This document shows positions 1,182 through 57,761 of a stretch of 64,000 nt of DNA, one piece after another. The position numbers were made by a program, and so were the translations under genes. This DNA comes from a virus: positions 32,001-96,000 of IMG/VR virus record IMGVR_UViG_3300009130_000005, one strand, 5' to 3'. Each line of letters begins with the position of its first letter. The stretch's first letter is position 1. A model generated the notes under the pieces. That model did not search any database, was not told the origin of the DNA, and was given only the letters and a program-made list of their open reading frames with translations.

Positions 1182-3736
1182 GTTTCACAAAAGAATTCGA
1201 ACAATACTCAGACTACGCTCCTCCAGGAGTTAGGCTACCAAAAATTAAGATCGAGAGTAGATACTACAAGCAACTAGGAACTTCTTCAGATATATCTAAC
1301 TACGAATTCCTGAGAGAGCTTTGTCTAAAAGCGGTAAAGGACAAGAAGATTTCCAAGCTTCCCAATAAAAAAGTTTACTACGAAAGAATAAAGGAAGAAC
1401 TCTCTATATTGCAAGAGCTTGGATTTGTTGACTACATATTACTTAACTGGGATATTCTAAACTTTTGCCACGAAAGCAACATACCAACAGGTCCAGGCAG
1501 AGGCTCAGCAGCAGGCTCTTTAATTTTATTTTTAATTGGAGTTACTCAAGTAGACCCTATTAAATACGATTTGTTTTTCGAGAGGTTTGTGTCTAAAAGT
1601 AGAGCAAAGAAGGTTGAGAAAGATGGAGTGACCTACCTTGATGGCAGCTTGCTTGCAGATGTTGATAATGACATAGCTTATGAACATAGGCAAAAAGTAA
1701 TCAAATACATTGAAGACAAGTATCCCAGCAGAACTTGTAAAATTTTAACACTTAATACTCTAACAGCAAAGCTTTGCGCTAAAGAGTGCGGTAAGATTGT
1801 TGGAGGCTTTTCAGAGCAAGAGGTTAACGAGGTGAGCGATTTAATTCCAAAAAAGTTTGGAAAAGTTGCTCCATTAAAAGATGCAGAGAAAGAGAGTGAG
1901 CCATTCGCAAAATGGGCAAAAGAAAACCCTCAAGTATTTAAAATCGCAAAAAAGATAGAGGGCTTAAATAAAAATACTGGCGTACACCCAAGTGGAATAG
2001 CAATCTCTTACCAAAAGCTAGAGGAAATATGCCCACTTCAGACTACATCAGACGGAGACATTGTAAGCGGGTACGATATGAACTGGGTAGCAGAGCTCAT
2101 GGTCAAGTTTGATATTTTAGGGCTCAGGACTCTCAGTGTTATTTATAATACATGCCAAGAAATAGGCATTAACCCCAACGATATTAACCTTGAGAGCAAG
2201 GATATATATTCAAATTTGCAAAACTTAATTACGCCACACGGAATATTTCAAATTGAGGCTGACACAGATTTCAGGGTATGCAGGAAGCTTAAACCCAGAA
2301 ACCTAGATGAATTGAGTGCAGTAATAGCAATTGCTAGGCCAGGAGCATTAGACTTCTTAGATAACTATTCTCGCTATAGAGAGACTTCTGAGTTTCAAAG
2401 CGTACATAGTTTATTTGACGATATATTGAGAAGCACGGCGGGAATACCATTATACCAAGAGCAGCTCATGCAAATGGCTGTAAAGGTAGGCTTTACTCTT
2501 GATGAAGCGGAGCAATTGAGAAGAATTGTAGGAAAGAAAAAGGTTGACAAAATGCCAGCGTGGAAAAAGAAAATTAAAGACAAGATAGAAGAAGGAGGCT
2601 TCGATGAAGAAGCAGGAGAAATACTATGGAGGGTTGCAGAGGATAGCGCAAACTATTCATTTAATAAATCTCACAGCATAAGCTATTCTTTTTTGGCTGC
2701 ATGGACGACTTACCTAAAATTTAAATACCCTCAGGAATTTTTCTTAAGTCTACTTAAAATGACCAAATTTGAACCTTCACCCCAAGAAGAAATCAATAAA
2801 GTTTGTCAGGAGTTGCCAAGATTTAACTTTGAATTATTACCGCCCGATCTAGGGCTGTCTCGAATGGATTTCTCTAGAGAAGGGGACAATATAAGGTTTG
2901 GACTAAATAGCATCAAAGGGGTTAGCGAGAAGTCTCTAGAAGCCTTAAGGAGTTTCAGAGAGACAGAAACTCCCAACAAATACGATGTCTTTATGTCTGC
3001 AAAGCAAGCAGGACTCAACATAGGAATACTCTCAGCACTCATACAAGCGGGAGCACTTTCATCCTACAAGCAAAATAGGTCACTGCTGGTTCTAGAAGCG
3101 CAAGCATTCAACCTATTAACTGAAAGAGAAAAAAGAAACGTCTATATCTTGGGAGAAAAGTACGATTATAAACTTTTAAAATGTATTGCTGATGCAAAAA
3201 ACAATGAACTAATAGGGGATGACGGCAGAAAAATTATGACCCTAAAGCGCTTCGAAACATTCAGAAAAAAGTTTGATCTTTATAAGAAAATATACGAAAA
3301 GAATAAAAAGTATGAGAGTTTTGCCAACTGGTATTTTGAAAATAAGCTATTAGGATATAGCTACACAAGCCGACTTAAAGATATATTCCAAAGCGATATA
3401 GCAAAATTTAAAGACACAATCTGTTTTGAATCCATGGAGAAAGATTCTAGAGATAGGTTCATAGGAACAATAACAGATGTTTTCAAGAAAAAGTCTCAAA
3501 ACGGCAACTCTTATTTAAAACTAACGCTTTCTGATGAAGTGGGAAGCATGCAGGCTATTATAGGAGACTGGGGCAACAGACAAAAACTAACAAACTACCT
3601 TAATAAAGGAAATGCTATGCCCGAAAAAGGTAATATAGTTAGCGTACTGGGAGCAAAAGGAGACGACATTCTTTTTATGGATGACATTAATATATTAGAT
3701 AAGAAAATTTATATGAAGCTCAGCGAGCTAAAGTAA
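1178..3736 (+). CDS. dnaE: DNA polymerase III alpha subunit core (lacks N-terminal PHP)
   Basis: GPGRGSAAGS, DVDND catalytic motif, GVHPSG, KFDILGL, YSFNKSH, C-terminal OB-fold-like region. ATG at 1178 overlaps the exonuclease TGA. Confidence 0.92.
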   Translation: MSFTKEFEQYSDYAPPGVRLPKIKIESRYYKQLGTSSDISNYEFLRELCLKAVKDKKISKLPNKKVYYERIKEELSILQELGFVDYILLNWDILNFCHESNIPTGPGRGSAAGSLILFLIGVTQVDPIKYDLFFERFVSKSRAKKVEKDGVTYLDGSLLADVDNDIAYEHRQKVIKYIEDKYPSRTCKILTLNTLTAKLCAKECGKIVGGFSEQEVNEVSDLIPKKFGKVAPLKDAEKESEPFAKWAKENPQVFKIAKKIEGLNKNTGVHPSGIAISYQKLEEICPLQTTSDGDIVSGYDMNWVAELMVKFDILGLRTLSVIYNTCQEIGINPNDINLESKDIYSNLQNLITPHGIFQIEADTDFRVCRKLKPRNLDELSAVIAIARPGALDFLDNYSRYRETSEFQSVHSLFDDILRSTAGIPLYQEQLMQMAVKVGFTLDEAEQLRRIVGKKKVDKMPAWKKKIKDKIEEGGFDEEAGEILWRVAEDSANYSFNKSHSISYSFLAAWTTYLKFKYPQEFFLSLLKMTKFEPSPQEEINKVCQELPRFNFELLPPDLGLSRMDFSREGDNIRFGLNSIKGVSEKSLEALRSFRETETPNKYDVFMSAKQAGLNIGILSALIQAGALSSYKQNRSLLVLEAQAFNLLTEREKRNVYILGEKYDYKLLKCIADAKNNELIGDDGRKIMTLKRFETFRKKFDLYKKIYEKNKKYESFANWYFENKLLGYSYTSRLKDIFQSDIAKFKDTICFESMEKDSRDRFIGTITDVFKKKSQNGNSYLKLTLSDEVGSMQAIIGDWGNRQKLTNYLNKGNAMPEKGNIVSVLGAKGDDILFMDDINILDKKIYMKLSELK

Positions 3737-3744
3737 GTGTAAAA

Positions 3745-6201
3745 ATGAGTATGGAACTAAAACCTAATTTCACGCCAAGAGCGCAAGAAGCAATTATTGG
3801 ATCAAGAACCATTGCGGAGAAATTCAACAAAAGAATGATTACAGAAAATCATTTATGCTTAAGCGTGGCGAGCACTCAAAGCATCAGCATAGCTGAGTTT
3901 TATGCGGCCTGCGGAATAGATCCTAAAAAAATTATAAAATTTATAAAAAGCAAACTTCAAAAAGGCCCTAAGCCACCAACAAACAAATCTTATTTTTCAA
4001 AGAAGTTTAAAGAAATACTCAACGGAGCAATCAAAGAAGCTCAAAAGTATGAACACGATTATGTTGGGGTAGAACACATCCTCCTATCTATTCTTGACAT
4101 GGAAAGCTCCTTGTTCTGTTTATTTTTAAGGTCAGAGGGTCTCGACTCTGATCAAGCAAAGCTAGCAATCAGGGCAAGATTTCTTGTTAGTGAGATGGAA
4201 AAAGAGCCATCGCGAGCCAGAGCAGAAAACATAATTCAATCTGAAGCTGCAACCATGTCGAACCCAAGCCAAAATGCGAACCTGTTAAAGTATTCCGTTA
4301 ACTTTAATTCCCTCGCGCAAGAGGGTAGATTTGATAATGTAATAGGAAGAGATCAAGAGATTAAAGATATGGCTGAAGTCCTATGCAGGAGATCAAAAAA
4401 CAACCCAATACTGCTAGGAGAACCTGGGGTAGGCAAAACTGCAGTTGTTGAAGGTCTAGCACAGGCAATAGTTGGTGGAAATGCTACAGATTTTCTTTTA
4501 AATAAAACAATATACTCTCTTGACCTTGCAGGAATGATCGCTGGAACAAAGTATAGAGGACAATTCGAGGAAAGATTAAAAAAAGTAATGGAAGAGATTG
4601 CAAATGATTCCACTGCAATTTTATTTATTGACGAAATACACACTTTAGTTGGAGCGGGAAGCGCAGAGGGAACTATGGATGCAGCAAACATACTCAAACC
4701 CTTGCTAGCGAGAGGAGAAATAATGTGTATTGGAGCTACAACAAGGGGTGAGTACAGAAAATCTATATTAAAAGATGGCGCCCTAGACAGAAGATTTCAA
4801 CCAATCTTAGTCGAAGAACCTTCGGAAGAAGAGTGCATTGAAATTCTAGAGGGTATAAAAGATAGGTATGAAAAGTTTCACGGGGTAGCTTATTCGAAAG
4901 AAGCATTAAGTAGAGCGGTTAAATTATCTAGTAGATACATTTTGGACAGACAACTTCCCGACAAAGCAATTGACCTTCTGGATCAAGCAGGATCCAAAGC
5001 GAAAATTAGAGGCTTCAAGAGGCCTCAGGAAGCAATTGCAATTGAACAAGAAATTACAGAGCTATATAAAAGTGAAGAAACTTCTAGTGAACCTCATATT
5101 GTAATCAGAAAAAGGGAAGAGTTACTAGAAAAGTATACCAAACTTATAGAAGACTGGGCAAACGAAGCGGTGAAAAAGAAAATTGACGTAGAAGAAGGTG
5201 ACATATATAAAGTTTTAACCCAAAAAACAGGAATCCCAACCGACGATCTTTCACAAACAGACAAAGATAGGGTATTAAAGTTACAACCAAACCTAAAAAA
5301 ATCAGTAATCGGCCAAGATGAAGCTGTCGAACAAATATGCAAATCAATTTTAAGAAATAAAGCTGGCTTAAACGATTCATCTCGACCCATTGGCTCCTTT
5401 TTATTCCTAGGGTCTAGTGGTGTAGGAAAAACTTATTTAGCAAAAAGGCTTTCAAGCCTTATGTTTGGGGGCGAAGACAACGTCATACAATTAGATATGT
5501 CTGAGTTCGGAGAAAAAGCCTCAACTTCTAAAATTTTAGGGTCTGCACCAGGCTATGTTGGCTACGAAGAAGGGGGTTCAATTATTGAAAAAATCAAAAA
5601 GAAACCTCATAGCGTTGTACTTTTTGATGAAATAGAAAAAGCTCACCCTGAAGTCACCAACTTATTACTTCAAATATTAGAAGAAGGAAAACTGACAGAT
5701 AGCTCAGGAAGACAGGCAAGCTTTCGCAATTGTATAATTATTATTACAGGCAATATCGGCTCTGGATTAACAAAGAAAACGAATCAAGTTGGCTTCGGCG
5801 CAAAAGATATCTCCAGCAAAGAAATCAAACAATCAATTATTGAAGAATCAAAGAAAATTTTAAAACCTGAATTAATAAATAGAATAGAATCGCCAATTAT
5901 ATTTAATAATTTTACAGAAAAAGAGCTTAAATTAATTGCTAACTTAGAACTGCAGTCCCTCGCACGAAGGGCAGAGGATAAAGCTGGCAAACTAAAATTC
6001 AATCCAAGCATAATAAACTATTTGTCAAAAAAAGCTTCAGCCATGAACGATGGAGCACGACCCATAAGGAAAATTATAAAAGACGAAATAGAAAACCCTC
6101 TTGCGGAATTACTAATGAAAGGAGACCTTGTGTCGGCAAATTTAACAACAGTTTCTTATTATAAAACCAAACAAGAGGTAAAATTCTCAATTAAAGAGTA
6201 A
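3745..6201 (+). CDS. clpC: ClpC/ClpA-type Hsp100 AAA+ ATPase
   Basis: Clp N-domain repeats, two Walker A motifs (GEPGVGKT, GSSGVGKT), GYVG pore loop, VGF ClpP-docking loop. Confidence 0.88.
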   Translation: MSMELKPNFTPRAQEAIIGSRTIAEKFNKRMITENHLCLSVASTQSISIAEFYAACGIDPKKIIKFIKSKLQKGPKPPTNKSYFSKKFKEILNGAIKEAQKYEHDYVGVEHILLSILDMESSLFCLFLRSEGLDSDQAKLAIRARFLVSEMEKEPSRARAENIIQSEAATMSNPSQNANLLKYSVNFNSLAQEGRFDNVIGRDQEIKDMAEVLCRRSKNNPILLGEPGVGKTAVVEGLAQAIVGGNATDFLLNKTIYSLDLAGMIAGTKYRGQFEERLKKVMEEIANDSTAILFIDEIHTLVGAGSAEGTMDAANILKPLLARGEIMCIGATTRGEYRKSILKDGALDRRFQPILVEEPSEEECIEILEGIKDRYEKFHGVAYSKEALSRAVKLSSRYILDRQLPDKAIDLLDQAGSKAKIRGFKRPQEAIAIEQEITELYKSEETSSEPHIVIRKREELLEKYTKLIEDWANEAVKKKIDVEEGDIYKVLTQKTGIPTDDLSQTDKDRVLKLQPNLKKSVIGQDEAVEQICKSILRNKAGLNDSSRPIGSFLFLGSSGVGKTYLAKRLSSLMFGGEDNVIQLDMSEFGEKASTSKILGSAPGYVGYEEGGSIIEKIKKKPHSVVLFDEIEKAHPEVTNLLLQILEEGKLTDSSGRQASFRNCIIIITGNIGSGLTKKTNQVGFGAKDISSKEIKQSIIEESKKILKPELINRIESPIIFNNFTEKELKLIANLELQSLARRAEDKAGKLKFNPSIINYLSKKASAMNDGARPIRKIIKDEIENPLAELLMKGDLVSANLTTVSYYKTKQEVKFSIKE

Positions 6202-6259: not shown

Positions 6260-6657
6260 GGGGGTGTTCTGGATTCGACTGATGTTGGATTCCTGCACCG
6301 CAAGTCGGAGATGCACTTGGCTTCGATACAAATGTGCAAAGCTTTACATGGCGCTAAAAACCGTGTTAGAGCCCTCGGTCTTAAGAACCGTCTCGCTGCA
6401 AAGCGTTTCGGCTTCAAGAGCCGTAAGCTCGCCTTAGCAGCTTAACCTGCTAACCTCTTACCTTTTGACGCAGATAAGGAGGATAAGGGGTCATCGATCT
6501 GCAAAACAGAAAAGGTTTACCTGTTAATAAACTGTAAATAATTGTAACAGGAAGTTCGATGTTAGTATCAACAACTCAAAAAGAAACTAACTAAACTTGT
6601 AGACGTGCTTGATTGAAGGCACTCAGGACGCGGGTTCAACTCCCGCCACCTCCACCA
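6260..6657 (+). ncRNA. ssrA: tmRNA
   Basis: 5' GGGGGTG...GGATTCGAC; 3' GCGGGTTCAACTCCCGCCACCTCCACCA; G3-U70 alanine identity pair; internal tag ORF 6350-6445 ending LALAA*. Confidence 0.95.
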
Positions 6658-14821: not shown

Positions 14822-15394
14822 AATGAGTCTAAATAATAAAATGATGTATGTAGTAACAAGAGGAGGCAGAAGAGTAGAGCCCAATAATTACGACAACGAA
14901 GAAGATGCTCAAGTCAGAGCTTCCAAATTGGTTGAAATGCTCAAGAAGTGTTCGCCACGCTGTGCTGGAAAGGTTGGAATCGTTAAAACAAAAAACCCTA
15001 ATACAATTACATGAAAACAGGAATGATAGACTATATACTTAACAAGTTCTGCCCACTTCTTATTGTTGCAGTGCTATGTTTTTTAAAAATGGGCGCAAAT
15101 ACCTTTGAGCCATATATTATACTAGGTTTAATGCTTTATGCTTCTTACTTTAATTATAAAGTCGGATACGCAATGGGCATTTGCGAGAGCAGAGGATTGA
15201 TTTGAAATGAAAGGTAAATACTATTCCCCAGACCCTTCTAAAGAAGTAAAACTTCTCTCAGATAAGGTAGAGTACCTTGAGAAAAAAATAAGGTCAAAAC
15301 TAGATTATCTACTCAAAGAAATTCAAAAACTCAGGGATAAAAAATAAGCCCAACAACAATATCTTTAATTATTGCAGTCATTGTTTTAGTTGCA

Positions 15395-15706
15395 TTGGCG
15401 ATAAACCTTAATGTCAGACTAAAAAAACTTACAGAAAAACAAAAGAAAGATCTGTCTCAAAGAAAAAGCAGAGAAGTTTTATTTGGACAGTCTGCAGAAA
15501 AAATTGCCCCTTTTCTAGATGAGTTTGGATTTGACCCAAGAGACTCTCAGTTCTTAGGCCAACCAATTGATTATGTAGTTTTCGACGAAGAAGAAGTTTG
15601 TTTTGTTGAAATAAAAACTGGCCAAGCTCGACTAACTACAAAACAAAGAAGAATAAAAAAACTCATAGAAAACAAGAAAGTTTCTTGGAAAGAATTAAGG
15701 ATATGA
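15395..15706 (+). CDS. Endonuclease related to archaeal Holliday junction resolvase
   Basis: GQSAEKIAPF, FLGQPIDYVVF, FVEIKTG. The frame extends to ~15344 with a hydrophobic helix, so the true start is uncertain. Confidence 0.75.
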   Translation: MAINLNVRLKKLTEKQKKDLSQRKSREVLFGQSAEKIAPFLDEFGFDPRDSQFLGQPIDYVVFDEEEVCFVEIKTGQARLTTKQRRIKKLIENKKVSWKELRI

Positions 15707-16290
15707 TTAGTCATGAGCGCAAGTGCATATTTATACATATCCCCAGATGCGGAGGAAGCTCCATGGAACTTGCTCTCGAGGGAAAATCTGCATTTAATCG
15801 CAAAGAAAAGCATCTTATAGCAACAACAGCAAAAAGAATATACAAAGATTATTGGGATGATTATTTTAAATTCTCTTTTATAAGAGACCCTTGGGATAGG
15901 ACAGTTTCATTGTCAAGATGGCCATGGTTTTATGGGTGCAGAGTTAGAAAAGGAAAACTATTAATAAAAGGTTTAAAAAACCTAATAATAGACCCAAGAT
16001 CCAAGAGCAGATTTGACAGAAAAAAACTAAAATTTAAAAAAAACGCAGTCTATTTAAATATCCTTAACGAAGAAATTGACTTTATAGGTAGGTTTGAAAA
16101 TCTACAAGAAGACTGGTTGTACGTCTGCAAGCAAATAGGCTTAGAGCAAAAACCTTTAGGTAATATAAAAAAGTACAAAACCAAATTGAAATATCCACAC
16201 AGGAGCTACTATACTACAGAAACAAAAAATATTGTACAACAAATACACCAAGAAGATATAAATTATTTTAATTATAAATTTGAATATTAA
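15703..16290 (+). CDS. Sulfotransferase family 2 protein
   Basis: FIHIPRCGGSS (5'-PSB loop), FSFIRDPWDRTVS (3'-PB), FIGRFENL, D...F.Y. Confidence 0.8.
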   Translation: MISHERKCIFIHIPRCGGSSMELALEGKSAFNRKEKHLIATTAKRIYKDYWDDYFKFSFIRDPWDRTVSLSRWPWFYGCRVRKGKLLIKGLKNLIIDPRSKSRFDRKKLKFKKNAVYLNILNEEIDFIGRFENLQEDWLYVCKQIGLEQKPLGNIKKYKTKLKYPHRSYYTTETKNIVQQIHQEDINYFNYKFEY

Positions 16291-16316
16291 CTTTGCGCAG
16301 TGTACATAACATAGAT

Positions 16317-17036
16317 ATGGCTAAGAAAAAACGTCCAGCGTTTAATATACCACAGCTCAAACAGAATATTGTCGTAAATTCACTAAAGCTCGACGACAAG
16401 CAATTACATTTTCTAGAAAAGTCTTTATCAAAAAAGACTAAGATAATGTTTGTAAATGGGCCAGCAGGAACGAGCAAGACATACATGGCGGTTTACTCTG
16501 CTTTAAGGTTACTTTCATCTGAAGATGATTTAGATCTTGTTTATGTAAGAACCGTTATAGAAAGTGCCGATAAAGGACTAGGAGCATTGCCAGGAGACCT
16601 TGCAGAGAAATTTAATCCGTACATGATGCCCTTGATGGATAAGTTAGATGAAATGCTACCTCAAAATACATCACTAAAGCATGACTTGTTGGAAAAGGGT
16701 AGAATATCAGCTATGCCAATAAATTTTCTGAGAGGCGCGAGCTGGATTAACAAAGTTATTGTTGCAGATGAAGCGCAAAACTTCACCTTTAAAGAGCTAG
16801 TAACTTTAGTTACAAGAATAGGGGAAAACACAACCCTATTTATATGTGGAGACACAATGCAGAGTGACATAAATGGAAAGAGTGGCTTTGACACGATGTG
16901 TAATATATTCAACAATTACAAGAGCAGACAAAAGGGAATAGAGCATTTCCAATTTACAGAAGATGACATAAAGAGAAGCTCTATATTAAAATATATCATA
17001 TCTACAATTAACGAACACAATGAAAAGAACAGGTAG
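16317..17036 (+). CDS. phoH: PhoH-like ATPase
   Basis: GPAGTSKT, LGALPG, LRGAS, DEAQN, TRIGE, GDTMQSD. Confidence 0.9.
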   Translation: MAKKKRPAFNIPQLKQNIVVNSLKLDDKQLHFLEKSLSKKTKIMFVNGPAGTSKTYMAVYSALRLLSSEDDLDLVYVRTVIESADKGLGALPGDLAEKFNPYMMPLMDKLDEMLPQNTSLKHDLLEKGRISAMPINFLRGASWINKVIVADEAQNFTFKELVTLVTRIGENTTLFICGDTMQSDINGKSGFDTMCNIFNNYKSRQKGIEHFQFTEDDIKRSSILKYIISTINEHNEKNR

Positions 17037-17604
17037 ATATTCATCCATGCCAGATGGATACAGAAGCTCGGATTGGGGCAATAATCACTCGTGTATACCT
17101 GTAAATATGTCAAGATACGCTATAGAAAAATACATTTCGAACAACAAAAAAGGTTTTCTTGGCAAAATTAGCAATTCCTATTGGGACCACTGGGATGCAG
17201 CAGTTTGTGTTAAATTAAAATTTAAAGAATGCGAAGCATTAGCTTTTGCAAATTTAGAACCCTATAGATTTCAAAAATTAACCGATAAAGAAATGAGGAG
17301 CAAAAGTGTAGTCTCGGCAAAATATGCCTTTGCTGAAGCAGCCACTATTGCGATAGAAAGATTATGCTTAAAGGCATTAATCAAGCTTGAGGATGCAGAT
17401 AATATAGACATAACATGCTTCCACTTTAGAAGAATTGACTCAAAAGCAGATGGCTTGATTTTTTTTGGAAGCAATGAGGACGCTTCGATTATAATAAATC
17501 CAACGGCAGAAGAATTAGAAAGAGCGGAAGGATTTGAGAGTTACAATATAGAGTTTAACAAATATAAAGGTCAATCACGCAACGGAAAATATATTTATTC
17601 CTAA
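17020..17604 (+). CDS. Hypothetical protein
   Basis: 194-aa ORF, no recognised motif. Confidence 0.5.
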   Translation: MKRTGRYSSMPDGYRSSDWGNNHSCIPVNMSRYAIEKYISNNKKGFLGKISNSYWDHWDAAVCVKLKFKECEALAFANLEPYRFQKLTDKEMRSKSVVSAKYAFAEAATIAIERLCLKALIKLEDADNIDITCFHFRRIDSKADGLIFFGSNEDASIIINPTAEELERAEGFESYNIEFNKYKGQSRNGKYIYS

Positions 17605-17613
17605 AAAAAAGAC

Positions 17614-17642
17614 TTGACTAAATCACATTTATCAGCTATAAT
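17614..17642 (+). promoter_or_regulatory. sigma70-like promoter of an unassigned ncRNA
   Basis: TTGACT-N17-TATAAT, followed by boxA-like TGTTCTTTTTAA at 17661. Confidence 0.8.
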
Positions 17643-17686
17643 ATAACTCATATTTCAAACTGTTCTTTTTAAATTTTATTGACTTT

Positions 17687-17896
17687 GGAAGTTCTCGACG
17701 GAGGCTTCCTGTGGGTGACCGAACAAGCCTGTCGTTAGCGGGCTAAGGTATGCAGATTCCCTGTGGTGGGGTAGCAGAGTCCAATCGGATGAGCTAAAGA
17801 CCATATACCGAGTCTAATCTGTGGTTCGAAGTAGGAAAACATTGAACTGATGTTAACGCCGAAAAGTTGGAGGTATTCAGTAGTCCTTCCCCACAC
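17687..17896 (+). ncRNA. Unassigned structured ncRNA (~210 nt)
   Basis: GC-rich stretch with no ORF in the track, between a promoter and a terminator; nested stems (TGTGGG/CCCACA, AGCCTGT/GCGGGCT, GCAGATT/AATCTGT, AACATT/GATGTT). Confidence 0.65.
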
Positions 17897-17903
17897 TTAT
17901 TTT

Positions 17904-17932
17904 AAAACCCCCTAGAAATAGGGGGTTTTTTT
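17904..17932 (+). terminator. Rho-independent terminator
   Basis: AAAACCCCCTA-GAAA-TAGGGGGTTTTTTT. Confidence 0.85.
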
Positions 17933-18474
17933 ATTATTATATTTAATGTTTTACATCAAGAAAGATCAGGATAATAGAGACGCAATTTCCTTAATAGAAG
18001 AAGTTATAACTGCGCACAAATCCCTTAAAAAAGAAAAAGAAAAAAGGGTTCTTGATTTATACATGGAATTGCCCAACGAAAAGCTTTTCGAAGAAATTTA
18101 CCTAGAGGAAGAGGAAATACGAAATATAGATATTCAAATTTCTGGAATAGAATACGCAAGAGATTACATTAAGCTAATGACAAAGATTTCAAAAAAATAG
18201 CAGAGAATACTCAAGAATAAAAATCTTCGTGTAATAAAATATATGAGCAAAGAACCTAATTACTTTATAATCTTCTTAATAGTAATTATTATAGGAATTT
18301 ACTCAATATATGAAAAATGTAATGCTAAAAACAAAGAACTAATGAATATTATCGAACAACAGGATCAAGTTATCCTGCAACAAGATAGCGCGATAAAAAA
18401 ACAAGGAGACCTTATATTGTTCTACAATATATTCTACGAACAAAACCGAAACAACCAATACCCTCTTTTCAACC

Positions 18475-18975
18475 ATGACTTTAAGGCAAGCCCTAAGGAA
18501 ATACAATTACAAAACCGTATTTAATATTATATTTAAAATTTTTTTGCAAAACAAATCATATTCAGAAGTATATGCCCTAGATGTAAATTTTCTTAATGCG
18601 TGGAATAATCTAGTTAATACAGAAAGTTACGACAACTATAAAAATTGCTCTATCTATTTGGTTGAGATTGAGGATGACCTAGAAGATCCTCCTGAGCAAA
18701 TCGTAGATGTTTGCCTAATAGATTCCGCCGAAGATGCGCTTCAGGCTTTAGATTTTTTATCTTGGGGAGAAATAATTGACTTGGATATTAAAAATTCCAC
18801 CGACCTTTCGGATAAGGAATGCTTGGCATACATTCTTTGGGAAATCACTTTCTGGGGCTTTAGCGACAGTTCGATTGCAGAACAAAAAGCTAAGTTAAAA
18901 AAGTCTCAAAAAGACTGGGAGCGGGTTGAAAAAGAGCTCAAGGATTTATATAATCCAAGAGATGAATCTTTATAA
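18475..18975 (+). CDS. Hypothetical protein
   Basis: 166-aa ORF with a LWEITFWGF motif. Confidence 0.5.
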   Translation: MTLRQALRKYNYKTVFNIIFKIFLQNKSYSEVYALDVNFLNAWNNLVNTESYDNYKNCSIYLVEIEDDLEDPPEQIVDVCLIDSAEDALQALDFLSWGEIIDLDIKNSTDLSDKECLAYILWEITFWGFSDSSIAEQKAKLKKSQKDWERVEKELKDLYNPRDESL

Positions 18976-19459
18976 AATCCCAACTCACAAGAATTGTCCC
19001 AAAAAAGTTTACGCAGTAGTCGAGATTCCTAAAGGCACCAGCGCAAAATACGAGTATGACCCAGAAATAGGAGTCTTTTTTTATGACAGAAGCCTGCTAA
19101 GTGCAATGACATACCCTGCGAGTTATGGTTTTATCCCAATGACTAAAGCAGAAGATGGAGATGCGCTTGATATTTTAGTTTATAATGCAGTACCCATCGC
19201 AAGAGGTACGGTTGTTGAATGCTTAGTATTAGGAGTGCTAGATATGAATGACGATGGAGAAAAAGATTACAAAATACTTGGCGTCCCTACATCACACGTT
19301 CGATCATATGAAAGCCTTGATGATATTGACCCGCTTTTCTTAGAGGTATCTAAAAACTTTTTCCAACACTACAAAGACCTAAATGGTAAAGATGTCGAAA
19401 TACTTAACTGGCACGACAAACATACTGCAAGAAAAATTATAAATGAAAACTTAATATAA
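18962..19459 (+). CDS. ppa: Family I inorganic pyrophosphatase
   Basis: EIPKG, KYE, YPASYGFIP, DGDALD, D.GEKDYK, FF.HYK. Confidence 0.92.
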   Translation: MNLYKIPTHKNCPKKVYAVVEIPKGTSAKYEYDPEIGVFFYDRSLLSAMTYPASYGFIPMTKAEDGDALDILVYNAVPIARGTVVECLVLGVLDMNDDGEKDYKILGVPTSHVRSYESLDDIDPLFLEVSKNFFQHYKDLNGKDVEILNWHDKHTARKIINENLI

Positions 19460-19696
19460 AAATCAAATGAATAATTCAATGAAAGATGTAAGAAAATACT
19501 ATAAGGAAGAGGTTGATCGGCTAACTGGCGCAGATTTCATGCTGGAGTCGCTCGCTCGGCACTGCGCTTCAAGCATTAACTTGATAGACAGCATAATGGA
19601 CAAAGATAGATTTGCAAAAAATAATAGCGCCAAAGACACTAAAGATTTACTTCTCAGTGTAAGTAATAATATCAATAAGTTAAAACATCTACACAA

Positions 19697-19828
19697 ATGA
19701 AATATTTAAATTTTTTATTATTTTTTATTTTTTCTGGCTGCACCCCAAATTGCAACGAAAATAATTGCGCATGCAATACCTGCAACGACGAGTGCAAAAA
19801 CTGCGAATGCAATAAAGAAAGTGTCTAA
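19697..19828 (+). CDS. Small Cys-rich putative lipoprotein (not in ORF track)
   Basis: MKYLNFLLFFIFSGC-TPNCNENNCACNTCNDECKNCECNKESV; ATGA overlap with the upstream ORF. Confidence 0.55.
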   Translation: MKYLNFLLFFIFSGCTPNCNENNCACNTCNDECKNCECNKESV

Positions 19829-20126
19829 ATCCTCAGCAGGAAAGGGTGACTCCCCTAGAAATAATTTTTCCAAAAATTTTCAAACAAATTATGAAAAAAT
19901 AAATTGGAAAAACCGAAGAGCCAAAAAAAAATTAAAAAAGAAAAAGGATTAACAGTGGACGATAGACAGAAGAAATACGTTGAAAGCACCAAAGGTCAAG
20001 AAGCTCTTTCTCGTGCGAGAAAGAAATACGATGAATCAGACAAAGATAGGCGCAGACAACAAAAAAGAGATTACATGAGAAGAAAGCGCGAGCAAGACCC
20101 AAACTACTGTAAATGGAAATAAATTT

Positions 20127-20942
20127 ATGAAATACATATTAATAGCTATAGCCTTATTGGCATCAAACTGTCTAGCCGCAAGAGATAAAAATCCCTTGCC
20201 AGAAAAGCCAAAGATTGAAAAACCTTCAAAGCCAAAGCATTTTCCCAAGCATTGGGGTCGCCCTCCTCAAATCCAATTAAAGGATTACGTAACTCTTCCT
20301 AATGGATTCGGAAAGGGGAGCTCAACTCTCGCAAACTGGATTAAGGAAAATTTAAAAAAAGACGCAGAAAATAAAAAGCCTGAGACTAAGCCTAAGCCCG
20401 AAATTAAGCCCAAGCCCAAGCCTAACAGGCCTTCAAGGCCAAATCCAAGACCTGAACCCCCTAAAGAGGTAAAAGACAAGATGGAAGCCTACAAGGAGGC
20501 ACAAAAAACCCTTCAAGAAGGTTTGAAAAAGAGACTCAAGGATTTAGGAGAAAAACCCTCAAGAGAAGCAGTAAGAAAGGAAGTTGAGAAATTTAAAGCA
20601 GAAAACAAATCAGCAATAGATTCTCAAAAATCTTTAGGTAAGGATATTCAAGATTGGCATAAAGACAATAGACCCGAGAGGCCAAAAAGACCCGAACCAA
20701 GCGAAGATGTAAAAAATAAAATGAATGCCCTCAAAGAGCAACAAGAAGCTTTTAAGGGTGTTAGAGACGCTTTCAGGCAAGCAATGGAGCGATCAAAAGA
20801 TATGAGCAAAGAAGATAGAGATGAATTAATTAAACAATTTAAAGAAGCGAGCGCTGAAAATCATAAAGCAATCAAAGAAGCTCACAAAGCTTTACAAAAA
20901 GAAATAAGAGAAATAAAACAAGAAGGTGATCGTAGACAATAA
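20127..20942 (+). CDS. Secreted Pro/Lys-rich coiled-coil protein
   Basis: N-terminal signal peptide, PKP repeats, internally repeated helical unit. Confidence 0.6.
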   Translation: MKYILIAIALLASNCLAARDKNPLPEKPKIEKPSKPKHFPKHWGRPPQIQLKDYVTLPNGFGKGSSTLANWIKENLKKDAENKKPETKPKPEIKPKPKPNRPSRPNPRPEPPKEVKDKMEAYKEAQKTLQEGLKKRLKDLGEKPSREAVRKEVEKFKAENKSAIDSQKSLGKDIQDWHKDNRPERPKRPEPSEDVKNKMNALKEQQEAFKGVRDAFRQAMERSKDMSKEDRDELIKQFKEASAENHKAIKEAHKALQKEIREIKQEGDRRQ

Positions 20943-20959
20943 TTAAAACAAGGATAGAT

Positions 20960-21601
20960 ATGAAAAAGTTGTGGATAGTAATACTGGCTGTGTTGTGTAC
21001 AAATTTGTACGCACAAAAAAATAATAACAAACCCAAGGACGAAGAACCTGATCAATTACCTACGCAAACTGAAGAACCTACTAAAGAAGAACCTTCGGTT
21101 GATGATAACACAAAACCATCATTACCACCAATTGATTTTGTAGATGAGGTTGAAAACAGTGGAGGTCCTGAAGTTATTGAAGAACTTGAGAAGGTTAAAA
21201 AAGAGAAAGATGATTTGGCAAAGATCATTGTTGATAAAGAGGAAAACGAAGGCAAGTTACTTAAGAGAATAGAAGAACTTCGTGTTTCAAAGGAATCACT
21301 TGAAAAAAACCTTGAAGCTGCAAGTGATTTGATTGACGAACTCAACAAAGAAAAAAAGCAATTGAAATCAAACATCTCGGATTTACAAACAGAACTTGAT
21401 AAACCTGTTGGTTCTTTATTTGATGGTTGGGTTTACTTACCCAAGTCTGGTTGGATTTATACTTCACCTAAAATTTATCCGTATGCGTTTTCTCAAAATG
21501 ACGGATGGTTAAAATACGAACTTGGTACAGACCCAAGACGAGTATTTTATTTTAAGGAAGATGCTTGGAAAGTTTTGAATAAAAAGAAAAACAAATTATA
21601 G
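20960..21601 (+). CDS. Secreted coiled-coil protein with Trp/Tyr-rich C-terminal domain
   Basis: Signal peptide, heptads, GWVYLPKSGWIY...YPY...GWL. Confidence 0.6.
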   Translation: MKKLWIVILAVLCTNLYAQKNNNKPKDEEPDQLPTQTEEPTKEEPSVDDNTKPSLPPIDFVDEVENSGGPEVIEELEKVKKEKDDLAKIIVDKEENEGKLLKRIEELRVSKESLEKNLEAASDLIDELNKEKKQLKSNISDLQTELDKPVGSLFDGWVYLPKSGWIYTSPKIYPYAFSQNDGWLKYELGTDPRRVFYFKEDAWKVLNKKKNKL

Positions 21602-31088: not shown

Positions 31089-32096
31089 ATGATATTAGGA
31101 CTTACATGCATTAGCGAACACCTCAAAGACAAGGATAAGAAAAAATATTCTTTTCGTACTATGACCCGAAAGCGGTTTCATCAACTTGAGAGGCATGACG
31201 CAATCAATCAGTTATCAGAAAGAATTCTGCACAATGTAAGAACTACGAGATACATAATCAACCATTGTATATCTCATAACATACTTCATTACCGCTTAAG
31301 TTCTGCTCTATTTCCCTTAATCACTGACAGTCAAACAGATGTAAATCTCGACGACCTTGATCCCATTTGCTTAACTCAAATTAAAGAAGAGTTAGAATTT
31401 GCAGGCAAAATAGCATATAAACATAATTTATCTATTGGCTCTCATCCCGATCAGTTCAATGTTCTTGCCTCCACCAATGAAGATGCAGTAAACAGAACAA
31501 TTAACGAACTAAATTTTCAAGCAAGCGTTCTTGATATGCTAGGTCTTCCGCAAGACCATACCACCCCAATGAACATTCATATTAATTATACTCCAAAAAT
31601 GGATGAAGGCTACGGAATGGTTGCAGATAGATTTTACAAGAATCTTATGCGTTGCGATGCAGGAGTATTCAATCGACTAACTATCGAGAACGAAGATAAA
31701 GGCTTCTTCAATGTAGATAATTGCATTAATTTTAGCGAATATTTACTTGATACATATGATTTTAATTTGCCTGTATGCTACGATAACTTGCACGACTTCT
31801 GCAATCCATCAGAAGAGCGTAATCTTACATTTCAAGCAGAGCGTTGTGCATATACATGGGTAAGCACAAGACAGCCCACAGAAGCTCCTTATAATAACTT
31901 TATTTCTCCTGTCTTTCATTGGTCTGAAGGTAGACCCGATAAGCCAAGAGCTCATGCAGATTATTTTGCACTAGGCAACCTACCGCCTCATATAGCAATT
32001 GATCCCGATTATCCTGCAAAATGGGAATGTGAAGTTAAGGCTAAAGACAAAGCGATTTTCACACTAAGAGAATCTATTTTCGCAGAAATGACTTGA
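31089..32096 (+). CDS. uvsE: UV DNA damage endonuclease
   Basis: LGLTC, YRLSS.LFP, HPDQF, NIH, LTIENED, HAD, E.KAKD. Confidence 0.88.
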   Translation: MILGLTCISEHLKDKDKKKYSFRTMTRKRFHQLERHDAINQLSERILHNVRTTRYIINHCISHNILHYRLSSALFPLITDSQTDVNLDDLDPICLTQIKEELEFAGKIAYKHNLSIGSHPDQFNVLASTNEDAVNRTINELNFQASVLDMLGLPQDHTTPMNIHINYTPKMDEGYGMVADRFYKNLMRCDAGVFNRLTIENEDKGFFNVDNCINFSEYLLDTYDFNLPVCYDNLHDFCNPSEERNLTFQAERCAYTWVSTRQPTEAPYNNFISPVFHWSEGRPDKPRAHADYFALGNLPPHIAIDPDYPAKWECEVKAKDKAIFTLRESIFAEMT

Positions 32097-57635: not shown

Positions 57636-57761
57636 GGGCTTGTAGCTTAGTCTGGTCTAGAGCCTTGTCCTCCTTCATCGTGAAATTCTAGATAAATTAG
57701 CGAACGGAGTAATTACCCGTGGAGCAAACAAGAGGCGGGGGTTCAAATCCCTCCAAGCCCT
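57636..57761 (+). ncRNA. tRNA-like RNA with ~50-nt insertion in the anticodon loop
   Basis: Acceptor GGGCTTG/CAAGCCC, D-arm GCTT...GAGC, T-arm GGGGG-TTCAAAT-CCCTC, 57-nt loop; own promoter (TTGACT 57578, CATAAT 57600). Confidence 0.75.

Follow-up and report, generated by a model that had tools for sequence, protein, structure and literature searches.

A divergent manA RNA packaged as its own small transcription unit in an uncultured marine phage

Introduction

Does a structured RNA that stands between two phage genes control the gene behind it, or is it made as a free RNA in its own right? The question is raised by a 64,000-nt stretch of viral DNA (positions 32,001 to 96,000 of IMG/VR record IMGVR_UViG_3300009130_000005; hereafter the window, whose numbering is used throughout), in which a promoter, a structured RNA and a terminator follow one another at 17614–17932. 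A preliminary description of the locus had proposed a dedicated, stand-alone, stable non-coding RNA of the phage, possibly of a new class. Here we report that the RNA is a divergent member of the manA family (RF01745). The family itself has already been described; what is new at this locus is the packaging of manA as a small transcription unit of its own.

The manA RNA was introduced in 2010 as a riboswitch candidate, rated certainly cis-regulatory and probably a switch. Apart from two gamma-proteobacteria, nearly all copies came from marine metagenomes or T4-like cyanophages, and they lay in potential 5′ untranslated regions (UTRs) of genes for mannose and fructose metabolism, nucleotide synthesis, ibpA and photosynthesis; the pseudoknot of manA was considered doubtful (Weinberg et al., 2010, PMC2864571). 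According to a 2023 phage-genome paper, the role of manA remains to be verified (PMC9964418), and no manA ligand is reported in the papers that our searches found. In a preprint of 1 July 2026, cryo-electron microscopy (cryo-EM) showed one manA RNA as a 60-subunit icosahedral cage and others as decamers or octamers (10.64898/2026.07.01.735769). Before manA, no natural RNA had been reported to form an icosahedral cage, and manA was shown to do so in the test tube only; the preprint addresses neither genomic context nor function, and the motif is still called putatively cis-regulatory. Our literature search found no paper that links manA with boxA, tRNA arrays or terminators, while the instance lists of the 2010 paper may hold such contexts.

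Results

The window RNA belongs to the manA family

A scan of the 64-kb window with Rfam 15 identified 17687–17899 on the + strand as manA RNA (RF01745), with a score of 83.4 bits (gathering score 55.2), an E value of 9.5e-20 and a full-length match to model positions 1–192 of 192. The RNA is therefore firmly placed as a divergent member of a known family, and the suggestion of a possible new class was wrong. Other points of the preliminary description agree with our analysis. The body is GC-rich, with a G+C content of 0.49 at 17700–17899 against 0.26–0.37 in the flanks and about 33% in the genome, and the + strand has no open reading frame (ORF) of at least 25 aa in 17605–17945. On the minus strand, two ORFs (42 and 53 aa) overlap the RNA region; they were rejected as genes, the stretch being kept as an RNA fold with compensatory changes. 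The tRNA, tmRNA, RNase P and SRP models of Rfam, whose signatures the preliminary description had not recognised either, gave no match in 17500–18100 at E values up to 1, ARAGORN made no tRNA or tmRNA call at the RNA locus, and no Rfam antitermination family matched there. A blastn search of 17600–17940 against 50,697 phage records found no match; the window copy is too divergent for a DNA search.

The carrier is an uncultured marine phage. Its 116,466-bp record, about 76% complete according to CheckV, contains a single manA copy and genes for a DNA polymerase, a Clp-like ATPase, rIIA/rIIB and a ligase. Its rIIA shares at most 32.5% identity with that of any cultured phage, which sets the carrier apart from the T4-like cyanophages that first yielded manA. 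Marine metagenome runs contain the stretch; the habitat is given only as 'marine metagenomes', and runs with small shares of the stretch were set aside for naming it.

The pairs of the window copy were taken from the Rfam alignment and the minimum free energy (MFE) fold, and comprise the following elements.

17687–17899, + strand: manA RNA (RF01745), Rfam covariance-model alignment
17687–17709, + strand: P1 hairpin, GGAAGU/GCUUCC and CUC/GAG with loop GACG (Rfam alignment, MFE fold)
17710–17715, + strand: 5′ strand of the closing helix, (U)GUGGG, pairing with 17890–17895 (Rfam alignment, MFE fold)
17718–17749, + strand: AC/GU pairs around the conserved CGAACAA and UAAG strands (Rfam alignment)
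17727–17743, + strand: hairpin GCCUGU-CGUUA-GCGGGC (Rfam alignment)
17752–17822, + strand: three-hairpin domain closed by GCAGAU/AUCUGU (Rfam alignment, MFE fold)
17762–17768, + strand: loop UGUGGUG of hairpin a in the three-hairpin domain
17772–17796, + strand: hairpin b of the same domain, extended
17798–17815, + strand: hairpin c of the same domain, with UACC in its loop at 17806–17809
17825–17863, + strand: long hairpin with outer UUCG/CGAA, an inner stem and loop ACUGAUG at 17846–17852 (Rfam alignment, MFE fold)
17857–17860, + strand: conserved internal-loop strand CGCC of the long hairpin
17869–17889, + strand: 3′ hairpin GGAGG/CCUUC with the 11-nt loop UAUUCAGUAGU at 17874–17884 (Rfam alignment, MFE fold)
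17890–17895, + strand: 3′ strand of the closing helix, CCCAC(A) (Rfam alignment, MFE fold)

The core of the closing helix joins GUGGG at 17711–17715 to CCCAC at 17890–17894. P1, this helix and six internal hairpins are all present in the MFE fold; the 5′ hairpin at 17687–17709 and the TGTGGG/CCCACA closure proposed earlier are thus seen in both the fold and the Rfam alignment, and the 'at least four' internal stems become six hairpins. All conserved strands of manA occur in the window (GUGAC.GAA.AA, UAAGGU, the GUGGUG loop, the ACC loop, the GCC internal loop and GGUA..AGUA.UCC), with two deviations, CGCC for UGCC and loop UACCG for UACCA. In the long 3′ hairpin, the outer stem has just 4 bp, 5 of its 7 model pairs in the Rfam alignment are non-standard or missing in the window, and an A at 17855, where 13 relatives have C, weakens the inner stem.

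Family-wide covariation supports the structure

A degenerate pattern of the conserved manA strands matched at least 120 IMG/VR contigs. Family counts given here rest on the matches listed, 108 of which contain both strands of the closing helix. Alignment A1 holds 104 distinct copies plus the window and was used to build model R1, and A2 consists of 101 realigned R1 hits, among which the window copy scores lowest (67 bits, against 87–216 for the other 100 and 113–216 for the full-length ones). R1 placed the window copy one register off in several helices, and for this reason the pairs of the window were read from the Rfam alignment and the MFE fold.

Compensatory changes, whose presence the preliminary description had proposed to check, were found throughout the family. 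Across 100 distinct sequences of A2 and 64 pairs (the Rfam structure plus two loop–loop helices), 94.6% of the cells are paired, as opposed to 34–43% when partners are slid by 1–3 columns, and 42 of the 64 pairs are changed on both sides, as opposed to 13–22 with slid partners. None of 500 shuffles came up to these figures. Because the alignment had been fitted to the model, the counts are biased in favour of the structure. Four versions of the closing helix occur in a set of 100 family sequences: GGGAG/CUCCC (92), GGGUG/CACCC (4), AGGAG/CUCCU (3) and, in the window alone, GUGGG/CCCAC. Helices that are present in the window also vary in its relatives, with P1 stems of GGAAGG/CCUUCC, GGGUCA/UGACCC and GGAUG/CGUCC, a three-hairpin-domain helix of GCAAAU/AUUUGU in L179, L167 and L138, and covariation in helices 3–4 of A2, which correspond to the element at 17718–17749. 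A de novo RNAalifold prediction on 13 window-like sequences gave another central pairing than Rfam and was left unused, as the family-wide counts back the Rfam structure.

A promoter, a boxA-like leader and an uncoupled terminator bound the RNA

Searches with window-specific patterns yielded 3 viral and 80 metagenome loci. Among these, 11 distinct complete copies (the window included) have the GUGGG/CCCAC closing helix, and the other ten pass the Rfam cut-off at 80–88 bits. One metagenome match (L155) proved to be a eukaryotic rRNA spacer, with 5.8S and large-subunit rRNA (LSU) matches, and was discarded as a chance pattern match. With the PhoH protein of the window as the query, 80 related viral loci were fetched; manA lies downstream of PhoH on the same strand in L205, L206, L209 and L212, three of which pass the Rfam cut-off, while L205 carries an inserted hairpin and falls below it (34.5 bits with R1). 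Five of the nine closest PhoH relatives (L207, L208, L210, L211 and L261) have no manA within 3 kb. The unit and its neighbours in the window are as follows.

16293–17036, + strand: PhoH, preceding the 194-aa gene
17020–17604, + strand: upstream gene, 194 aa, no family (ORF call)
17614–17642, + strand: sigma-70-type promoter, with −35 TTGACT (17614–17619), a 17-nt spacer and −10 TATAAT (17637–17642); 11/12
17662–17673, + strand: boxA-like leader motif GTTCTTTTTAAA (sequence and conservation across loci)
17904–17932, + strand: intrinsic terminator with 11-bp stem AAAACCCCCUA/UAGGGGGUUUU, loop GAAA and a U-run (hairpin and T-run)
17946–18200, + strand: next gene, 84 aa, no family (ORF call), 14 nt past the terminator U-run

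The near-consensus promoter, the boxA-like leader and the strong terminator of the preliminary description are therefore all in place. The promoter ties for the best in 15000–21000, a region in which promoter-like sites are not above chance (22 against 18.2 ± 3.6 in shuffles). Transcription would start near 17649, leaving an AT-rich leader of 38 nt before P1. Promoters of 10–12/12 lie 46–110 nt ahead of P1 in the window, L174 (12/12), and L178 and L186 (11/12), and equivalents were found by eye in L205 (12/12) and in L209 and L212 (10/12).

The leader motif was defined as G[T/A]TCTTT[T/A]1-2A[C/A/T]A on the first 11 window-like copies. Each of them has it a single time within the 200 nt upstream, and it is found nowhere else in 210,322 nt of window-like loci, both strands and the rest of the window included, a count that is partly circular because the motif was defined on the same copies. 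The four PhoH-syntenic loci were fetched afterwards and are independent of the definition; all four contain the motif, as GATCTTTAACA or GTTCTTTTAAA. It is thus present in 15 of 15 window-like copies, with GATCTTTAACA or GTTCTTTAATA in the relatives. These match GYTCTTTAANA, the boxA consensus of gamma-proteobacteria (Baniulyte et al., 2017, PMC5725501), at 10–11 of 11 positions, and that consensus may not be the one of the host. The argument for boxA rests on conservation across loci and not on enrichment in the window. Upstream of the cyanophage-type copies (those among the 108 with at least 200 nt upstream) and of the 33 'subtype B' copies described below, the motif is absent. The boxA-like leader is a conserved feature of the window-like subtype, and Nus factors may bind it, as judged by analogy. 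As in the boxA/Nus leaders of rRNA operons (PMC5725501), the motif lies between a promoter and a structured untranslated RNA; no boxC was recognised in the window, and a boxB-like hairpin occurs only in some window-like relatives.

In eight of these relatives (L124, L136, L179, L166, L186, L178, L138 and L174), a hairpin of the type TTGAGAA...ACTCAA precedes the boxA-like motif. Its loop is complementary to a short stretch past an A-rich spacer (GGGGC/GCCCC, GAGGC/GCCUC, GGAU/AUCC, AGCUU/AAGCU), and from the sequences the hairpin and its complement look like a covarying pseudoknot. The hairpin matches no Rfam family and is absent from the window itself.

The terminator hairpin (17904–17929) contains 5 GC pairs and a 4-nt loop, is followed by seven T and has a folding energy of −16.6 kcal/mol. 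Pair probabilities in its core are 0.9–1.0 (0.7 for the outermost A–U pair) and do not change when the closing helix of manA is blocked. In folding of the window with blocked arms, no alternative partner appeared for either terminator arm, and hence no antiterminator. These thermodynamic predictions indicate a terminator that is uncoupled from the manA fold, with no sign of a switch platform. Strong hairpins with T-runs begin 13–26 nt past manA in the window, L124, L138, L174 and L179. By eye, a terminator directly follows manA in L206, where the hairpin of the window recurs with compensatory changes, and in L212, which has a different hairpin in the same place. Of 14 window-like copies whose downstream sequence is long enough, 7, counting the window, carry a terminator immediately after manA, and the stem sequences differ. 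Weaker or more distant terminators were found in L178 and L205, a very weak hairpin (−5.5 kcal/mol) in L186, and none behind manA in L123, L136, L167 and L209; L166 is too short to judge.

A same-strand gene does start at 17946, but the strong terminator stands between it and manA. A similar reading frame begins at the same place in L206, as judged by eye, and searches of viral contigs with the proteins on either side (194 and 84 aa) found no relatives. That manA has its own promoter, terminator and rRNA-style leader signal argues for a free RNA over a gene switch. The stand-alone part of the preliminary description is in this respect supported by an own promoter, a conserved leader motif and a recurrent uncoupled terminator; its suggestion of a new class fell, and the stand-alone reading remains a proposal.

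Two loop–loop contacts covary

Two pairs of loops in the window are complementary: GGUG with UACC (hairpins a and c), and (A)CUGA of the 17846–17852 loop with UCAG(U) of the 3′ hairpin loop. The first contact, GUGGUG/(U)UACCA, is invariant in the cyanophage-type copies, with four pairs present in 96–97 of 97. Among the 15 window-like copies it takes the following forms.

GGUG/UACC: 10 of 15
GGCG/UGCC, changed on both sides: 2 of 15 (L209, L212)
GGUG/UGCC, with a wobble: 2 of 15
GGUA/UACC: 1 of 15

The second contact changes from CUGUA/UACAG to AUGUA/UACAU in 13 sequences (column pair 204–241: CG 76, AU 13, UG 1, unpaired 2), and reads CAUUA/UAAUG in L175 and ACUU/AAGU in L205. In the window-like set the 3′ loop has UCAG in 8 copies and ACAG in 6, with a complement of 3–5 nt; the first A of ACAG may belong to the stem. 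Such covariation of the loops indicates that both pairings are under selection.

The oligomers seen by cryo-EM are built from pentamers through intermolecular kissing loops, either L5–L7′ plus L8–L9′ or L6–P6′, L5–L7′ and L3–L8′ (10.64898/2026.07.01.735769). The loop pairs of the family are probably the L5–L7′ and L8–L9′ contacts of that work. The window keeps two complementary loop pairs of the kissing-loop kind; its sequence is not among the imaged RNAs, and assembly of the window RNA is predicted by analogy with them.

Genomic contexts of manA differ among subtypes

Among the cyanophage-type copies, 82 of the 103 loci that could be assessed have a promoter of at least 10/12 ending 4–8 nt ahead of P1, a spacing found at 10 of 2400 positions drawn at random from these loci; the cyanophage-type RNA would thus begin at the start of early-type promoters. 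The ORFs behind manA (n = 106) encode gp32 (20), transaldolase (10), DUF6561-like proteins (8), phosphomannomutase-like proteins (PMM; 4), small unknowns (36) and others (28), the last including mannose-6-phosphate isomerase, 2OG oxygenase and pyrimidine-dimer glycosylase. These genes are mutually unrelated and have no common pathway. Within 12 nt past the closing helix, 42 of 107 copies have at least 7 T. A blastn search with one cyanophage-type copy returned 37 phage records, all of Prochlorococcus or Synechococcus myoviruses or marine single-cell viruses, in which manA is mostly unannotated or overlaid by a 'hypothetical protein'.

Two side observations may be added. The viral contig L084 carries two full-length manA copies 3.3 kb apart on the + strand (119–315 and 3636–3836; 183 and 153 bits). 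The cyanophage-type loci L015, L017, L018, L024, L029 and L046 have a common stretch, GACCUAAGAUGCAACU, about 10–20 nt past manA and behind a U-rich tract; this stretch may mark a conserved start region or represent another RNA element.

ARAGORN was applied to all fetched loci. In 9 of the 175 complete copies it placed a tRNA gene on the same strand as manA and no more than 24 nt from the closing helix. In L126 (1242–1609), tRNA-Asp extends to 1316–1317, manA occupies 1318–1532 and tRNA-Asn begins at 1537, with gaps of 0–1 nt (ARAGORN/Rfam) and 4 nt. In L175 (820–1106), tRNA-Thr ends 1 nt before manA, and in seven cyanophage-type loci (L006, L022, L037, L054, L069, L088 and L093) tRNA-Asn or tRNA-Gly lies 5–19 nt behind it. 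An RNA between or ahead of tRNA genes is more easily understood as a co-processed stable RNA than as a leader with control over translation or over a metabolic gene.

A further set of 33 distinct manA-like copies, here called 'subtype B' (within L125–L204, for example L125, L130, L133 and L139), falls below the Rfam manA cut-off. They have the strands TGACCGAACAA...UAAGGU...GUGGUG in common with manA and a conserved upstream TTTTTTGACAATTTG. Directly 3′ of the subtype B element in L133 and L139 there is a manA match of 61–62 bits, an arrangement that may represent tandem manA-like domains.

Metatranscriptome contigs cover the RNA body

Four marine runs were compared over 17000–18600. Two metatranscriptome runs from two studies each gave one contig on the RNA body, of 170 nt (17709–17877) and 160 nt (17703–17862). 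Both contigs differ from the window at a single position, A to G at 17807, a loop position that is also variable in relatives. Their ends at 17703/17709 and 17862/17877 are not transcript ends, and the missing cover of the flanks in these two RNA runs (X19 and X20) carries no weight. The metatranscriptome check suggested by the preliminary description thus turned up matching contigs, which are a weak hint of expression, as they indicate neither strand nor ends and RNA libraries may contain DNA. Further contigs, from two DNA runs, match 17705–17903 only, at lower identity and with unlike sequence on both sides; they are relatives of the same module in other contexts.

Other features of the window

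A family-2 sulfotransferase gene (15685–16290) and an inorganic pyrophosphatase gene (18926–19459) flank the PhoH–manA region. A full-length tmRNA (Rfam, 132 bits) lies at 6260–6657 on the + strand, directly 3′ of the gene for a Clp-like ATP-dependent protease/unfoldase (3745–6201, + strand), and went unreported by ARAGORN. At 57636–57761 (+ strand), a 126-nt match to the tRNA model (43.7 bits) covers all 71 model positions, which suggests a tRNA with a long insertion or an intron; ARAGORN made no call there either.

Discussion

The arrangement of the locus leads us to favour, with modest confidence, a discrete, Rho-protected and terminator-bounded phage RNA that acts free, probably as an oligomer, and not as a ligand switch. 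This reading accords with a terminator that is conserved and uncoupled, the motif in the leader, the occurrence of manA beside tRNA genes, the lack of kinship among the genes downstream, and loop contacts that are under selection. It contradicts the published label of the family as a cis-regulatory riboswitch candidate. We propose a plausible course of events. Host RNA polymerase would start at the sigma-70-type promoter, near 17649, and the boxA-like leader at 17662–17673 would recruit factors of the NusB/NusE type, by analogy with rRNA operons. Such putative recruitment could keep the untranslated structured transcript from Rho termination and might aid formation of the long-range helix. Transcription would then end at 17904–17932 to yield a discrete RNA of about 285 nt, whose 213-nt core is predicted to take the manA fold of P1, the long-range closing helix, the three-hairpin domain and two further hairpins. 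The RNA would act free of mRNA, most likely as a homo-oligomer held by GUGGUG/UACC and CUGA/UCAG, as inferred from related manA RNAs in vitro, and read-through of the terminator would supply the downstream genes.

How do other explanations compare with a free RNA? The published rating of the family as certainly cis-regulatory and probably a switch (PMC2864571) implies that the manA fold binds a metabolite and thereby sets the passage of polymerase through the 17904–17932 terminator into the genes from 17946. A complex junction of several stems, at which nucleotides hardly vary, as in the loops, would suit such a riboswitch, as would the order of promoter, structured RNA, terminator and a gene that has no promoter of its own, and manA is always upstream of same-strand genes. 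The conserved loops are, however, accounted for by loop–loop pairing, the terminator is predicted to be thermodynamically independent of the closing helix, with no antiterminator pairing found, and what follows manA (gp32, transaldolase, PMM, a DNA glycosylase, tRNAs) belongs to no common pathway. In L126 the element stands between two tRNA genes. Together with the lack of any ligand in the papers found and a role that remains to be verified (PMC9964418), these data make a metabolite switch unlikely in our judgement.

Mixed downstream cargo, untranslated tRNA genes included, would be expected if boxA and manA instead formed a cis-acting antitermination site that alters polymerase, alone, with Nus factors or with a phage protein, so that it passes the terminator behind manA and later ones. 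In the early transcripts of phages, HK022 put RNAs and lambda nut sites stand close to the promoter and ahead of terminators, and boxA plus manA resembles them in this respect. Put and nut are much smaller and are not known to resemble manA in sequence or model; they serve here as a functional analogy only. Also in favour are the position of manA directly behind early promoters (82 of 103), the terminator immediately 3′ of it that is conserved in relatives, and the boxA-like motif in 15 of 15 window-like copies. Against this stand the cyanophage-type copies, which have no boxA-like motif (where at least 200 nt upstream are available among the 108) and a terminator-like hairpin in 33 of 107, and L126, where manA lies in the middle of a tRNA array and not at its start. 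No Rfam antitermination family matches the locus, and neither loop–loop covariation nor closed oligomers in vitro would be needed for a polymerase-bound element. We regard antitermination as improbable, too. Still less probable to us is a 5′ stabiliser or processing module without any trans function, whose fold would guard the transcript from 5′-end-dependent decay or mark a processing site. P1 at the inferred start in 82 of 103 cyanophage-type copies, the U-rich tract after the closing helix in 42 of 107 and the tRNA directly downstream in seven cyanophage-type loci agree with it, but a 200-nt, six-hairpin fold with near-invariant loops far exceeds what the task requires, and in the window a 38-nt leader before P1 and a terminator after the RNA leave little to stabilise beyond the RNA itself.

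Several observations weigh against a free, oligomeric RNA. A 5′-UTR role fits the bulk of the manA family: a same-strand ORF follows manA at a median of 45.5 nt, and at 60 nt or less in 64 of 106 cases, while a terminator-like hairpin (−8 kcal/mol or stronger, with a T-run) lies within 100 nt in just 33 of 107 cyanophage-type copies. In the window, the 84-aa gene has no convincing promoter (the sole site, 9/12, overlaps the terminator) and must therefore rely on read-through, so that the manA–terminator pair could gate it. The boxA-like copy of the window itself matches GYTCTTTAANA at 9 of 11 positions, or at 11 of 11 with one inserted T, the gamma-proteobacterial consensus again being possibly not that of the host; the motif is short and AT-rich, and its loose pattern is not enriched in the window (15 against 20.1 expected). 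The folding energy of the single sequence is unexceptional (z = −1.75; 14 of 200 shuffles fold as well), and support for the fold comes from homology and covariation, not from energy. As for oligomers, covariation cannot separate intramolecular from intermolecular loop pairing, our mapping of L5, L7, L8 and L9 onto the loops is by inference, and the reported assembly took place in vitro only, with about 3 mg/mL RNA, 10 mM Mg, annealing at 50 °C and other sequences (10.64898/2026.07.01.735769). The metatranscriptome contigs, lastly, do not establish that their material was RNA, nor its strand or ends.

The window copy and cyanophage-type manA share a P1 hairpin, a long-range closing helix, the conserved strands, a three-hairpin domain and a 3′ hairpin, and both come from marine phages. 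They differ in the closing helix (GUGGG/CCCAC in place of GGGAG/CUCCC) and in the extended P1 and hairpin b of the window, which also has a 38-nt boxA-like leader ahead of P1, where cyanophage-type copies start at P1, and a strong uncoupled terminator behind it. The wcaG RNA (RF01761), introduced alongside manA as another riboswitch candidate of marine origin and of cyanophages (PMC2864571) and located 373 nt upstream of manA in phage S-CREM1 (PMC9964418), differs from manA in fold, and the window contains no match to it.

For the family as a whole, a bolder view, to which we give less than even odds, is that manA RNAs are not riboswitches at all. They could be stable phage RNAs made from rrn-style boxA units with terminators, from the 5′ ends of early transcripts or from tRNA arrays, the kissing-loop cage or ring being the form selected in infected cells; the covariation of both loop–loop contacts suggests such selection. 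For annotation, a routine Rfam scan finds the element, and its proper label is manA RNA. No new class is opened by this locus. manA has been an orphan riboswitch candidate since 2010, and its genomic anatomy (stand-alone units, copies wedged between tRNA genes, copies at the starts of early promoters and covarying loop contacts) bears on whether its assembly has any meaning in vivo and gives manA RNA cages a testable biological context. If the broader view is true, the window would be among the cleanest natural examples of a viral gene for a self-assembling RNA particle.

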